Source: Abditibacteriaceae bacterium (GTDB lineage Bacteria; Armatimonadota; Abditibacteriia; Abditibacteriales; Abditibacteriaceae). From it: DNA of 44,271 nt. Of the stretch, positions 15,778-20,379 are shown piece after piece. Positions within the stretch are counted from its first letter, which is position 1. Every line of letters begins with the position of its first letter. The notes beneath the pieces are model-generated. The model did no database searches, was not told the DNA's origin, and saw only the letters and a program-made list of their open reading frames with translations. The stretch lies in contig JANPJS010000186.1 in assembly GCA_031425655.1 (NCBI GenBank), positions 1 to 44,271 on the forward strand, read 5' to 3'. A program made the translations under genes and the position numbers.

Positions 15778-15793
15778 GAAATACGCGTGAATG

Positions 15794-16762
15794 TTATTTG
15801 GCCGGTGCCGGTTTGGGCTGTTCGGAGCCGGTGCTTGTGGTTTTCGGCGCCGGGTCGGTGGCGCCGGTGAAATCGTTGGCGATAGTTTGAATCGCGTCCG
15901 CCGGCAGCATTTCGCCGGCTGCGACGACGAAGCGATATTTGAAGGTAGACGATTCGCCGCCTTTGATTTTCGCCATCGGGAAGGCGCCGAAGCGGCCATA
16001 ATCGCGGTAGGCCGACCAGCGCGTGTCTTTCGGGTTCGTCGGGTGGTTGATGTGCAGCACGCTGTAGTTCGCGTTGTTCAGCGAGAAGGTTTCGCCGACC
16101 CACGGATAATCTTTGTCGGCGTGCGGCTTGGCGCCTTCTTTGGGATAAATGTAGGTAGTTTTCTTGGTGTCCACTTCGTTAGCCGGGCGGAAATGGATGC
16201 CGGCGTGTTCGGGGTCGCCGTTCAATTCTACGTCAACCGTCGGGGCGATTTTCGAGGAGAAATCAATTTGCACATAAGCGGGCGCCGGGGCTTTGCGGAA
16301 GGTCAGGGTGCGCTCTTCGACGATGAAAGGCGCGCCCTTCTCATCGTTCCAGTTCACCTGAGAAGTAATCGTCGCGTGTGTCGCGTCGGCTTCCTGTGTC
16401 AGGAATTTTTGATGCACTTGCTCGCCGCCGGTCATGTGCCAGCGGTCGAGCGTTTTGTCTTTTCCGGCCACGGTAATCTTGTTCCAGCCGATGTAAATGC
16501 CGCGATGGTGCGTGAACTGTCCGCCGGGGCCTTTAGTAATCGGCGCTTTGCCTTCGGCGTCGAAAATATGCAGATACGGCTTGTAGGTTTCGGTCAGCTT
16601 TTCTTTGCTGGACTTGTCGTAAGCATACATATAACGCCCGACAATTTTGCCGTCCTGCAAAATATCCATGTGCTGGCCGGGCGTGTCTTGCAGCGCGAAA
16701 TCGGCGTGGGCGGTGCCCGCGAAGACGACGGCGGCGCATAAAAGTGAAGTGAATTTTTTCAT
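15794..16762 (-). CDS. Secreted 'PmoA-family'/DUF6807-like protein
   Basis: Signal peptide; 'KPYLHIF...HHRGIYIGW...NHPTNP...WSAYRDYGRFGAFP'. Confidence 0.7.
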   Translation of the reverse strand: MKKFTSLLCAAVVFAGTAHADFALQDTPGQHMDILQDGKIVGRYMYAYDKSSKEKLTETYKPYLHIFDAEGKAPITKGPGGQFTHHRGIYIGWNKITVAGKDKTLDRWHMTGGEQVHQKFLTQEADATHATITSQVNWNDEKGAPFIVEERTLTFRKAPAPAYVQIDFSSKIAPTVDVELNGDPEHAGIHFRPANEVDTKKTTYIYPKEGAKPHADKDYPWVGETFSLNNANYSVLHINHPTNPKDTRWSAYRDYGRFGAFPMAKIKGGESSTFKYRFVVAAGEMLPADAIQTIANDFTGATDPAPKTTSTGSEQPKPAPAK

Positions 16763-17046: not shown

Positions 17047-18387
17047 TTAAGCGGCCAGCGCTGCTTTGGAAGTTTCGCTCATCACGATTTGTTCCAGCAC
17101 TTCGACGACATCGGGGTCGAACTGGCTGCCGGCGCAGCGTTGCAGTTCGCTCACAGCCACACCGGTCGTCCACGACTCGCGGTAAGGGCGAATCGAAGTC
17201 ATGGCGTCGAAAGCGTCTACCACGCCGATGATGCGCGACGACAGAGAAATTTCATTGCCCGACTGGCCGTCGGGATAGCCGGAGCCGTCCAAACGTTCGT
17301 GGTGATGAAGCACAATCGGCGCGATGTTTTGCAGCGAAGGCACGCGCTTGATGATGTCGCTGCCGATGGCCGAATGTTTCTGAATAATCACGAACTCTTC
17401 GGGCGAAAGCTTGCCGGGCTTGAGCAAAATGCCGTCGGGAATGCCGATCTTGCCGACATCGTGGAGCAGCGCGGCGTATTGCATTTCTTCTAAGGCGCCG
17501 TCTTTGATGCCCAAGCGCCGGGCCACTTCGACCGCGATGCGCGACACACTTTCGCAGTGCCCGCGCGTGTAAGGGTCTTTGGCTTCGATGGCGTCGGCCA
17601 GAACCGCAATGGTCGAGCGAAAAGAGTCTCCCAGCGCACAATGCAAACGTTGATTTTCGAGCGCGATCCCTGCGTGCCGCCCGATAGAGAGCAAGATTTC
17701 CATGTCATCGTCCGTGTAAGGGCCGGAGCGTTTATTGGCTACAAGTAGCACTCCGGTCAAATTTCCCCTGACGACGACAGGAGCGCACGCGATGTTCACA
17801 AGAGCACTGCCGTCGGGCAAAGCCGATGGGTCGTTGCACTCGATAGAGTCTTCTTCGCGCGCGGCGCGCCTGGTAAATTCGTAAAGCGCTTGGGCCACGA
17901 AGTCCGGCATATTGTCCAAGCCGATGGCGCTGACGGTATTTTCGCCCAGCGGCCCGGTGAACAGCGCGGCTTCCGATTCGGTCAGGCTCATGCCGATGCG
18001 CGCCAGCAAAGTCGGCAAATCTTCGGCGCGCAAATCACGATAAACCTCCAATAATTCACCGCGCAGGCCTCGTTCACGCTCGCTTTGCCGCGCCATTTTT
18101 GCGGTCGCAGCCGCTAAGGCTGCGGCGCGCTGCTCGCAGTCGGAGCGCCAGCGGTCGCAATCGCCGCGCACCATATCGCGCTCGATTTCGGCTTGGTGCA
18201 GCGCGGCCTGCATGGCGTCGCGCTCGGTTTGAAAGTGGTGGCTTTGCGCCGTCGCACGCGCCAACTCGTCGCGCAAGCGCGCGAGATCGCTTTGCATGAC
18301 AATAACGGCGTGGCGTGCTGCGTCCAGCGATTGCAACGCGGTTTCGCCGTTAATTTCAGCGCCGTCTTGGGGAGAAAAATCGTTCAT
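17047..18387 (-). CDS. Coiled-coil + GAF + HD-GYP cyclic-dinucleotide phosphodiesterase
   Basis: 'AKDPYTRGHC', 'LLHDVGKIGIPD', 'HHHERLDGSGYPDG', 'DAFDAMTSIRPYR'. The start is placed at ATG 18387 after GAGGTG. Confidence 0.92.
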   Translation of the reverse strand: MNDFSPQDGAEINGETALQSLDAARHAVIVMQSDLARLRDELARATAQSHHFQTERDAMQAALHQAEIERDMVRGDCDRWRSDCEQRAAALAAATAKMARQSERERGLRGELLEVYRDLRAEDLPTLLARIGMSLTESEAALFTGPLGENTVSAIGLDNMPDFVAQALYEFTRRAAREEDSIECNDPSALPDGSALVNIACAPVVVRGNLTGVLLVANKRSGPYTDDDMEILLSIGRHAGIALENQRLHCALGDSFRSTIAVLADAIEAKDPYTRGHCESVSRIAVEVARRLGIKDGALEEMQYAALLHDVGKIGIPDGILLKPGKLSPEEFVIIQKHSAIGSDIIKRVPSLQNIAPIVLHHHERLDGSGYPDGQSGNEISLSSRIIGVVDAFDAMTSIRPYRESWTTGVAVSELQRCAGSQFDPDVVEVLEQIVMSETSKAALAA

Positions 18388-18503
18388 GCGACAACACCTC
18401 GAAAAGTAGTGGAGGTCGGCCATAGCAGGCGCCGTGCCGCCGCAAAGCGTAAAAGGCAATTATTGCAACACGAAAAGAGTAATTGTCGCAATGCGGACAA
18501 AAA

Positions 18504-19727
18504 TTAACTTTTCACGAGAGCGGCACTCCGCGGCCAGCGCGTGGTAAACGTCGTGCCGTTTTTGTCCGATTCGAGCGAAATGCCGCCGCCGTGCGCGCTC
18601 AGAATCTCGCGCGCGATATAAAGTCCCAGTCCCAGACCATCGTCGCCCGATTTTTCATCCAATTGCGAGGCGCGTCGAAACGGGTCGAAAATCGCTTCTT
18701 GCACTGCGGCGGGAATGGCCGGGCCGGCGTTGTGAATGGCGACCGTAACGTATTCGTCGTCATTTCGCACCGTGATTCCGACCGGTGAATCCGCGTCGCC
18801 GTAACGCAGCGCGTTGGAAACCAGATTGGAAACGACTTGCGCGGCGCGGGGCGCGTCGAATTCGCCGCGCGCGTCGTGAGCCGCAATGAGTTCCAGCGCG
18901 CGATGAGAATGCTGCACGCGCAATTCGCCGATGACGTGGCGACAGATTTCATTCATGTTCGCCGGAGCTGGGGAAACGGGAATGCCGCCGCCCAAACGAC
19001 CTCGCGTGAGATCAAGCGTTTCGCCGATCATGTGCGACATTCGCTGGGCGCTGCTTGCCATCAATGCGGCCATTTGAGCGTTTGGCGGGGATAAATCAGG
19101 GTCGCGCTGCAGAGCGTCGGCGCCCAATAAAATTGCGTTCAAAGGGCTACGCAAATCGTGGCCCAAAATGCCGATGAAACGCTCGCGGATGCGGCCCATT
19201 TCGCGCGTGGCGCGCAGTTCTTCATCGAGTTTTCGCCCTTGATCCTCGGCTTCCAATTGAAACGCGATCAGGTTTGCCAGCAAATGAAAAATTTGCAGAT
19301 GTGATTTATTGAGTTGCGTCGGACGCGAGTCAAGAGCGCACAGCGTCCCGAAATAGGATTGGTCGCGGCGGAACATCGGCACCGCGATATAACTTTCGAT
19401 GCCGAACACTTTGAGACCGGGATGGTTGCAAAAATCGGGTTCTTCGCTAGCTTTATTGATGATAAACGGCGCGACCGCGCCGCCAACATCCTGTCAGTAA
19501 GTGTTGGCGAGTTCCAGATTGTCGCCGGGTTTGAGTCCGAAGTCAGCCTCGTCTAAGACAGCGCAGGCCGTCCACGAATCAGCAGTAACACGGGCAACTA
19601 AAGCGATGCGCAGGCCGGTTGTCTCGCTTAAGACACGCAAGATCATCTCGATGCCCTGAATACGGCTGATGGCTTCTAAATCGTGCGTGATGTTGGTGTT
19701 TTGGGAGCCGGGTTCTGGATTGTTCAT
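18504..19727 (-). CDS. GAF-domain sensor histidine kinase with an in-frame UGA at codon 78 (putative selenocysteine), 407 aa
   Basis: ORFs 19494-19727 and 18504-19409 are in one frame separated only by TGA at 19494-19496: ...WTACAVLDEADFGLKPGDNLELANTY-UGA-QDVGGAVAPFIINKASEEPDFCNHPGLKVFGIESYIAVP...FGTLCALD. H-box 'LGHDLRSPL', N-box 'NLVSNALRYG', G2 'GLGLGLYI'. Confidence 0.8.
19461..19490 (-). promoter_or_regulatory. Putative bacterial SECIS element
   Basis: 3 nt after the UGA: GAUG-(UU bulge)-GGCGGCGC-[GGUC]-GCGCCGUU-UAUC hairpin, with 17 nt between the UGA and the G-leading apical loop. Confidence 0.65.
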
Positions 19728-19767: not shown

Positions 19768-20379
19768 TCAGATATTGCGCCGTTCGGGACGCACTTCACG
19801 CACCAAATGACCCAATTCGGGCGCGATGAGCTTTTCCATCGCCAATCGCACGGCATTCGTGCTGCCGGGCAGCACGAAAAGCAGCGTGCGTCCCATAACT
19901 CCGGCAAAAGCGCGCGAGAGCATCGTGGCCGCGCCGACTTCCTGAAAGCTGAGCACGCGGAAAACTTCACCGAAACCGGGCATTTCCTTAGTCAGCAACG
20001 GTTTTAAGGCTTCGGGTGTCACGTCGCGCTCGCCGATGCCGCTGCCGCCCGTTACGACCACGACTTCGGGGTCGCGGATGCCTTCGCTGGCGTCGCGCAC
20101 GGCTTGCGCGATCTCGGCCTTTTCGTCGCGCACGATGCGCGAGCCGACGATTTCGTGGCCGTTGGCGAGCAGAATTTCTCGAATCAAAGCGCCGCCGCGA
20201 TCATCGGCGTCCGTGCGCGTGTCGCTGACCGTCAGCACAAAGCAGCGCACCGAATTCGGCGCCTGCGCGCGATGTTCTTCGGTCGAGGCCGAAGCGTGCC
20301 CGCTTTCTAAATCGGGGCGCACTGGCAAGTTATTGTCGAGTTTCTGGTTGCTCGCCTGATTATCGGGATGTTGGGACAT
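19768..20379 (-). CDS. moaB: Molybdenum cofactor biosynthesis protein B (MoaB/MogA family)
   Basis: 'VLTVSDTR...D..G', 'TGGSGIGERDVTPEA', 'MPGFGEVFR', 'LSRAFAG...LPGSTNAV'. Confidence 0.92.
   Translation of the reverse strand: MSQHPDNQASNQKLDNNLPVRPDLESGHASASTEEHRAQAPNSVRCFVLTVSDTRTDADDRGGALIREILLANGHEIVGSRIVRDEKAEIAQAVRDASEGIRDPEVVVVTGGSGIGERDVTPEALKPLLTKEMPGFGEVFRVLSFQEVGAATMLSRAFAGVMGRTLLFVLPGSTNAVRLAMEKLIAPELGHLVREVRPERRNI

Follow-up and report, generated by a model that had tools for sequence, protein, structure and literature searches.

Does a TGA codon that interrupts a sensor kinase gene end its translation, or is it read as an amino acid? This question is raised by a gene on the minus strand of contig JANPJS010000186.1 (assembly GCA_031425655.1), a stretch of 44,271 nucleotides from an Abditibacteriaceae bacterium that we refer to in its entirety as the window. 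An initial annotation, made from the letters alone, had proposed that the kinase is split solely by the in-frame TGA at 19494-19496, that the 28 codons between the two predicted open reading frames (ORFs) continue a GAF domain, and that the TGA encodes selenocysteine (Sec). The first two claims were borne out. The minus-strand TGA (19496-19494) forms codon 78 in a frame of 407 codons (19727-18504), and the rest of this frame is open: it runs from ATG 19727 to TAA 18504 with no second internal stop and no frameshift. ORF calling with table 11 splits the frame into a 77-aa ORF (19494-19727) and a 301-aa ORF that starts at GTG 19409, and the gap of 28 codons (79-106) between them lies within a GAF domain that Pfam places at residues 27-158, running across codon 78. 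Around the TGA, the minus strand reads AAC ACT TAC TGA CAG GAT GTT GGC GGC GCG GTC GCG CCG. From the comparisons described below, we consider it highly probable that the TGA is a genuine Sec codon, directed by a selenocysteine insertion sequence (SECIS), in a full-length 407-residue kinase. The predicted gene and its domains are as follows.

18504..19727, minus strand: predicted complete selenoprotein gene, 407 codons plus TAA (read-through translation; Pfam; full-length Cys homologues of 384-431 aa)
19494..19496, minus strand: UGA codon 78, putatively read as Sec, in the motif T76-Y77-U78 (aligned codon Cys in 124 of 144 loci, TGA in 16 of 144)
19254..19649, minus strand: GAF sensory domain, residues 27-158, including U78 (PF01590, E 9.4e-10; PF13185, E 1.2e-7)
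18996..19187, minus strand: HisKA dimerisation and phospho-acceptor domain, residues 181-244 (PF00512, E 1.3e-12)
18528..18857, minus strand: HATPase_c catalytic ATP-binding domain, residues 291-400 (PF02518, E 1.2e-22)

Domain content indicates that the gene product is a soluble, cytoplasmic class I (HisKA) sensor histidine kinase with the layout GAF-HisKA-HATPase_c. The phospho-acceptor H190 lies in the motif GHDLRSP, and H190, D191, L192 and R193 are all invariant in the homologue alignment, as are N301, N305 and the glycines of G366-L-G-L (G366/G368) in the N and G boxes of the HATPase_c domain. The best NCBIfam matches were generic kinase models, every one below its own cut-off.

We searched for proteins related to the read-through product and obtained 5437 matches at E <= 0.001 among 8000 scored candidates. 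Full-length matches have the same GAF-HisKA-HATPase_c layout as the window kinase. Some of the top matches begin just past residue 78 (P0003, with 81% identity, P0008, P0075, P0108 and P0113), and the window kinase itself is represented by two database entries, a 290-aa C-terminal piece (P0002) and a 77-aa N-terminal piece (P0124). We also gathered 168 homologous DNA loci from 61 related genomes, a metagenome collection and GTDB species genomes; 144 of these align over position 78. The aligned codon is TGC in 96 loci, TGT in 28, TGA in 16, GGT or GGC in two, and AGC and TGG in one each, corresponding to Cys in 124 loci, a TGA in 16, Gly in two, and Ser and Trp in one each. No TAA or TAG was found at this codon among the 144 loci; where there is a stop, it is always TGA. 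The four homologues with Trp, Ser or Gly at this position are L180, L058, L079 and L091, with TGG (Trp) in L180.

The 16 TGA loci correspond to 14 distinct sequences, since L021 is the window itself and L109 and L111 repeat L022 and L023. Thus, there are 13 TGA relatives, with 40-54% identity to the window protein. They include two species of the same genus (G002 and G003), seven metagenome contigs, and metagenome-assembled genomes (MAGs) titled Deltaproteobacteria, Pyrinomonadales, Thermoanaerobaculia and Acidobacteriota, the Acidobacteriota locus (L114) being from a genome flagged as unpublished. Because the same codon is TGA in 13 diverged relatives and is never TAA or TAG, a private nonsense mutation is excluded. 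The Cys homologues, annotated as GAF domain-containing sensor histidine kinases in Archangium, Myxococcus, Corallococcus and Vulgatibacter, share the length and the GAF-HisKA-HATPase_c architecture of the window kinase; the closest are metagenome proteins with 53% identity (P0004-P0006). They keep W52, C55, D59, T76, S112, Y113, P117, F126, G127, C130 and H190, and differ in having TGC or TGT where the window kinase has UGA. We found no functionally characterised Cys-form homologue.

In an alignment of 58 GAF sequences, the invariant positions are L30, T37, W52, C55, D59, G64, G68, T76, U/C78, S112, Y113, P117, F126, G127, C130 and A131, and H102 is near-invariant. The one in-frame TGA of the kinase gene therefore falls at a position that is otherwise invariantly Cys or Sec. 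Codons 79-106, between the called ORFs, are conserved in frame across homologues. The initial annotation had named a conserved Cys at the UGA position and had suggested looking for relatives with TGA at the same codon; the 124 Cys loci agree with the former, and such relatives exist. Its suggestion that the cysteines of WTAC, FCNH and GTLC form a site together with Sec held in part. C55 of WTAC (codon 19563-19565, minus strand) and C130 of GTLC (codon 19338-19340, minus strand) are invariant, whereas C99 of FCNH varies, so that the conserved set is C55, U78 and C130.

Strain-level data came from the assembled contigs, rather than raw reads, of four public runs belonging to two studies, so that rare variants could escape notice. 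One run possibly gave rise to the assembly, another shares its study, and the remaining two come from a second study. Contigs of all four runs span 19494-19496 without a difference, so the TGA that the initial annotation wished to see checked is kept. Ten sites near the TGA vary among strains, nine of them at third codon positions, in codons 19-64 upstream of the TGA and in codons 93 and 105 downstream. Because third-position variants predominate on both sides, we conclude that purifying selection acts on both halves of the gene, and in one and the same frame. The contig data bear on the explanation that the TGA arose by nonsense mutation, marks a pseudogene, or reflects an error of assembly or sequencing. 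Such an explanation would fit the splitting of the kinase by gene callers and the deposition of P0002 and P0124 as separate proteins, but it is opposed by the recurrence of TGA at the same codon in relatives of 40-54% identity, by the use of TGA and never TAA or TAG in 16 loci, by the conservation of both flanks with their third-position variants, and by the persistence of the TGA in two studies. We give it practically no credence.

Downstream of the TGA, we identified a hairpin with the character of a bacterial SECIS (bSECIS), an element that goes beyond what the initial annotation had proposed.

19465..19484, minus strand: predicted bacterial SECIS-type hairpin, encoding G-G-A-V-A-P (residues 82-87) (RNAfold; 14-locus alignment)
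19484-19477 (5' arm), 19476-19473 (apical loop GGUC) and 19472-19465 (3' arm), minus strand: parts of the predicted hairpin (RNAfold)

The hairpin is G+C-rich, has 8 bp including two G-U pairs, and has a local minimum free energy (MFE) of -13.8 kcal/mol. It starts 9 nt past the UGA, with 17 nt separating the UGA from the loop. The consensus bSECIS model has a loop of 3-9 nt with a G within its first two positions, a stem of 4-16 bp, a UGA-to-loop distance of 16-37 nt and an MFE <= -7.5 kcal/mol (PMC13188914). With its 4-nt loop starting G-G-U and the values above, the window hairpin lies inside all four of the limits quoted there. The window kinase also resembles established SelB/bSECIS genes (FdhA, SelD and others) in having its UGA at a Cys position and its hairpin within the coding region. 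An Rfam scan of 19300-19600 returned no family at E <= 1; Rfam may have no model for this element.

The hairpin is shared by the relatives. RNAfold predicts a downstream hairpin in all 14 distinct TGA loci, and the apical loop is GGUC in 12 of them, GGGC in L023 and AGUU in L073. GGUC is likewise found at the tip of the SECIS of E. coli fdhF. In the 14-row alignment, 91.1% of pair cells hold standard pairs, as against 82.5% in column shuffles (none of 500 as high), and this proportion drops to 21-60% when the hairpin partners are slid by 1-3 columns. Two-sided changes were seen in nine pair cells, a number likewise reached by none of 500 shuffles. Compensatory changes are found at pair 18-33 (CG in ten rows, UA in two, AU and GC in one each) and at pair 21-30 (CG in eight, UA in three, AU, GU and UG in one each), and both of these covarying pairs sit at synonymous third codon positions. 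Three of the eight hairpin pairs never vary and are uninformative either way.

The constraint also appears to be visible in the protein. The peptide AVAP follows Sec in 13 of 14 Sec forms (AGAP in the fourteenth) and in none of the 124 Cys forms, which are variable there; by this comparison, AVAP is best read as a protein-level shadow of the constraint on the RNA hairpin. Consistent with this, the 33-nt region folds with an MFE averaging -13.4 kcal/mol (sd 2.7) in Sec forms and -6.0 kcal/mol (sd 3.7) in Cys forms. Among the Sec forms, L057, with an insertion of 3 nt, has the least stable hairpin, and 45 of the 124 Cys forms equal or exceed it in stability.

The initial annotation had called for a search of the genome for selA, selB, selD and tRNA-Sec; all are present. 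The host assembly comprises 5.98 Mb in 327 contigs and is 97% complete, the window being contig C186. We detected a tRNA-Sec with anticodon TCA (ARAGORN) whose score of 76.1 bits exceeds the Rfam cut-off, and matches to SelA (E 5.6e-145), SelB (355.7 bits, cut-off 242) and SelD (E 1.4e-108), each likewise exceeding its family cut-off. The selD gene has one in-frame TGA, and because this sits at the SCAG-U-ASK site, the host SelD is predicted to be itself of the Sec type. The tRNA-Sec gene lies ~150 nt downstream of selD (G000:C40:91-1281; loci L018 and L001).

With the machinery in place, we considered whether the UGA might be read through in some other way, by near-cognate suppression (inserting Trp, Cys or Arg) or through a reassigned code. 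The TGG (Trp) codon of L180 at position 78 would be in keeping with this. However, TGA is the ordinary stop of nine of the 24 long ORFs in the window, from which we conclude that the genetic code is not reassigned; the kinase has a single in-frame TGA, at an invariant Cys position; and the gene is accompanied by a SECIS-type hairpin and by a full set of Sec machinery in the genome. Read-through by anything other than Sec is, in our view, barely credible.

We next compared the presence of SelA between genomes with the two forms of the kinase. All seven searchable genomes with a TGA form have SelA: the host (G000), the same-genus G002 and G003, and the genomes of L110, L112, L113 and L114. These seven stem from some five lineages and cannot be counted as independent. 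By contrast, strong full-length SelA matches were found in six of 34 Cys-form genomes; unlike the Sec forms, Cys-form kinases are thus mostly in genomes in which SelA was not found. Within the same family, SelA was not found in four Cys-form genomes, whose assemblies are only 87-92% complete. Among the 30 further Cys-form genomes, ten have a SelA match at E <= 0.001, six of them strong and full-length (E < 1e-100) and four weak and partial. From these genome contents, the TGA form looks to need the Sec machinery, which by itself does not seem to suffice. The selA of G003 is broken into four frameshifted pieces with stops (C8:669353-670369), and the kinase there has a frameshift near residue 320 (L023, near 2417-2424); both are probably assembly errors rather than signs of gene decay.

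If the UGA were instead a true stop, the locus would encode a 77-residue peptide and a separately initiated kinase with half a GAF domain, and the hairpin might serve in pausing or mRNA stability. There are candidate internal starts, such as GTG 19409, and database entries P0008, P0075 and P0108 begin just after codon 78. Yet the GAF fold crosses the stop, such that neither piece is a domain; the 28 inter-ORF codons are conserved in frame; 124 of 144 loci have Cys at this position; the hairpin fits all four bSECIS constraints; and every searchable TGA-form genome has SelA. A true stop is therefore very improbable, though marginally less so than read-through by another amino acid.

To place the Sec forms among their homologues, we built a FastTree phylogeny of 150 rows (13 Sec forms, 124 further loci and 13 database proteins), leaving out L038, other loci not covering residues 25-380, and duplicates. 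All 13 Sec rows fall within one set of 24 rows with an SH-like support of 100, and the other 126 rows are without Sec. The set also holds 11 Cys rows, including P0004-P0006 as sisters of same-genus Sec forms, and requires at least five changes between Sec and Cys. A tree made without the columns for residues 77-89 gave the same grouping, with five to six changes. The tree has no bootstrap and is midpoint-rooted, so it does not resolve the direction of change. We conclude, on phylogenetic grounds, that the kinase is a member of a GAF kinase clade whose position 78 seems to switch between Sec and Cys, with predicted Sec forms in several phyla. Nested in the Sec clade is a Cys form, L070 (294-353), with a strong hairpin (-21 kcal/mol) at the SECIS site; this hairpin may be a relic of a Sec-to-Cys conversion.

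The databases appear to contain further Sec forms. A search with residues 1-77 brought up 179 proteins between 42 and 135 aa long (E <= 1e-5). Among the best 120, 119 end at T-Y (109 proteins) or T-F (10 proteins), right before the Sec position, and 118 have the motif W-x-x-C-A. There are thus at least 119 short proteins ending in this way (P0125-P0243), with lengths of 64-112 aa. Those with names are each called 'hypothetical protein' and come from MAGs labelled Chloroflexota, Chloroflexia, Herpetosiphonaceae and Pyrinomonadaceae. The short proteins appear to be misannotated N-terminal halves of Sec-form kinases. The clade would extend over Abditibacteriota and Acidobacteriota and, by database names, also Chloroflexota.

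Several observations weigh against Sec decoding or temper it. The case is made by comparison, and no RNA run is listed for the stretch. The Sec forms are kin, so counts across them are not independent. Six of the 124 Cys forms are at least as stable in the 33-nt region as the Sec median. The hairpins after the host selD TGA have other loops and another shape than the GGUC hairpin of the kinase, and because of this difference a common SelB recognition motif cannot be claimed. For the at least 119 short proteins, the stop is only presumed to be TGA. Nevertheless, tests on the machinery, the homologues, the relatives and the contigs all failed to refute the Sec reading, and the interpretation offered by the initial annotation is on that account supported.

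To our knowledge, bacterial selenoproteins are almost all redox enzymes or handlers of metals and organometals. The window kinase, a signal-transduction kinase, is unlike such FdhA- or SelD-type proteins, and it has no UxxC or CxxU motif. A 2026 review lists 119 prokaryotic selenoprotein families in its Table 1, none of which is a GAF, kinase or sensor family (PMC13188914). The text of that review has no occurrence of 'GAF', 'sensor' or 'two-component', and 'kinase' occurs in it only as PSTK. Nor does the BSepDB paper contain an entry for a GAF protein, a sensor or a two-component system in its main text, to which this comparison was confined. Literature searches for selenoproteins among histidine kinases, sensors and GAF proteins likewise returned no report of such a protein in the portions of text retrieved, in agreement with the statement in the initial annotation that no characterised Sec-containing two-component sensor is known. 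The Sec GAF kinases are thus apparently an uncatalogued and seemingly widespread selenoprotein family. There is nothing unusual in how the UGA is decoded; what is new is the place that the selenium occupies. If Sec does lie in the ligand pocket of a two-component sensor, selenium biology would be carried into signalling. The Sec/Cys swap also flags a chemically important residue in a very large, uncharacterised family of GAF kinases, in which U78, C55 and C130 offer a handle on the signal, as they may for related GAF domains of the Dcsbis type. On the practical side, 119 or more database entries called 'hypothetical protein' (64-112 residues), with the matching truncated kinases, appear to be the halves of misannotated selenoprotein genes.

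What might Sec do in this domain? An AlphaFold model of GAF residues 20-165, with C in place of U, has a mean predicted local distance difference test (pLDDT) score of 90.3. It places C55 on strand beta2, C130 on strand beta5 and U78 in short helical turns between beta2 and beta3. The block over the hairpin-encoded peptide has a pLDDT of 69, the lowest of all blocks, and this low confidence suggests that the SECIS has been placed in a tolerant loop of the protein. Both the sequence profile (E 2.3e-5) and Foldseek (E 3.6e-8, TM score 0.72) gave as best match the GAF domain of Dcsbis (PA2771, 4zmu), a GAF-GGDEF diguanylate cyclase of Pseudomonas aeruginosa. In the alignment, U78 is matched by the cysteine of the Dcsbis motif 'SFC', and C130 by that of its 'GTLC' motif. 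The two proteins differ in output (GGDEF in Dcsbis, histidine kinase in the window protein) and in having Cys or Sec, with an identity of ~21%. The Dcsbis GAF domain is described as having a large pocket between a sheet floor and an alpha3/alpha4 roof (PMC4937426); the text of that paper contains neither 'Cys' nor 'cysteine'. The next Foldseek ranks are held by bilin-binding GAF domains (phytochromes, PixJ, AnPixJ and Slr1393; E 1e-6 to 3e-5, TM 0.6-0.75). Identity of the window GAF to its PDB GAF matches is 10-21%. A relationship to fRMsr/MsrC was rejected: hhalign against E. coli MsrC gave a probability of 0.3 and an E of 0.2 over 27 columns outside the Cys region, and no fRMsr chain is among the PDB matches listed for the window GAF.

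The comparisons indicate that UGA 78 is recoded along the usual bacterial route, with the hairpin at 19465-19484 as the SECIS that would recruit SelB with Sec-tRNA(Sec). For sensing, we propose the following mechanism. Sec78, on a short helical segment between beta2 and beta3, would roof the GAF ligand pocket, with the invariant Cys55 (beta2) and Cys130 (beta5) on the pocket floor. Its selenol, with a low pKa and high nucleophilicity, would be the reactive sensing group, most likely reacting with an oxidant or electrophile or making a selenenyl-sulfide with a nearby Cys (C55 or C130); alternatively, Sec78 might ligate a metal or cofactor. The signal would then pass through the C-terminal GAF helix to the dimerisation and phosphotransfer (DHp) helix and alter autophosphorylation at His190. 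Without selenium, translation would stop at codon 78, making the pathway dependent on selenium supply as well. The initial annotation had already suggested a redox or metal site and a full-length kinase tied to selenium supply, ideas that we retain as conjecture. Sec substitutes for Cys only where the reactivity of the residue matters. Because Sec takes the place of Cys at sites that call for nucleophilicity or redox reactivity, we judge a selenol switch responding to an oxidant or electrophile to be the most likely role, followed by metal or iron–sulfur (Fe-S) ligation, with a tetrapyrrole adduct the least likely.

In the second of these roles, Sec78, Cys55 and Cys130, perhaps with His102 or Asp59, would ligate a metal or Fe-S cluster that senses metal, O2 or NO. 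The GAF domain does offer three invariant Cys/Sec residues, the near-invariant His102 and the invariant Asp59, and several catalogued selenoproteins bind metal or Fe-S (Table 1, PMC13188914). On the other hand, there is no CxxC-type motif, and no metal theme emerges among 150 variable neighbour ORFs. We regard a metal site as unlikely, if worth keeping in mind. In the third, the GAF domain would bind a tetrapyrrole (bilin or heme), with Sec78 making a covalent or axial bond, as does the second Cys of some cyanobacteriochromes or heme-thiolate sensors. The rank of bilin-binding GAF domains directly after Dcsbis, and a heme-oxygenase-like gene directly downstream of the kinase in L110, would be compatible with this, but bilin GAF domains are abundant in the PDB, so their rank may reflect sampling, the identity is 10-21%, and the heme oxygenase is one case among 150 neighbour ORFs. 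The canonical Cys-His chromophore motif is not conserved: H102 is near-invariant and C99 varies. The resemblance is at the level of the fold only. Tetrapyrrole binding is accordingly improbable, distinctly more so than a metal site.

The selenol switch itself is put forward tentatively, with somewhat less than even confidence. It counts against the switch that the sensing role of Sec78 is conjectural, that the lining of the ligand pocket by U78 is inferred from the topology of the model, and that the Dcsbis GAF domain is reported to bind neither cAMP nor cGMP, its ligand being unknown (PMC4937426). The genetic context, too, gives no guide: among 29 + 150 neighbour ORFs scanned with Pfam, in the window and at the other loci, there is no partner gene conserved across lineages, and neither in the window nor at the TGA loci does the kinase have a gene with a receiver domain beside it. 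With no adjacent receiver gene, the kinase is an orphan, which is common and does not exclude membership of the HisKA class of two-component kinases. A few of the Cys forms do have a single receiver (REC) gene next to them (nine of 150 neighbour ORFs). With the same reserve, we suggest that these kinases might be the first bacterial family of signal-transduction selenoproteins, in which a selenol would sense oxidants, electrophiles or a metal more rapidly than Cys does, or at a lower potential, and the phosphorelay would be gated by selenium.

The closest neighbours of the kinase gene in the window are two genes, one on each side.

17047..18459, minus strand: GAF and HD-GYP-type (HD_5) protein (HD_5, E 7.7e-43; GAF_2, E 1.4e-8)
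19768..20379, minus strand: MogA/MoaB-like molybdopterin-binding protein (MoCF_biosynth, E 1.7e-30)

The first is, by its domains, likely a cyclic di-GMP (c-di-GMP) phosphodiesterase. GAF-HD-GYP and MoCF_biosynth genes flank the kinase in both annotated Abditibacteriaceae loci (the window and L109:985-2946), in differing order, and are restricted to loci of this family. Their proximity could reflect a functional link to c-di-GMP or mere synteny. In L110, from a MAG titled 'Deltaproteobacteria', the heme-oxygenase-like ORF directly downstream of the kinase occupies 1939-2538 (PF01126, E 1e-8). Further away in the window, at 15791-16762, near-coextensive ORFs lie on opposite strands; the plus-strand ORF has no Pfam match and is probably a shadow ORF, and the minus-strand ORF encodes a DUF6807 protein (E 4.5e-45), a family also represented close to the kinase at L024 and L111, loci of the same genus.

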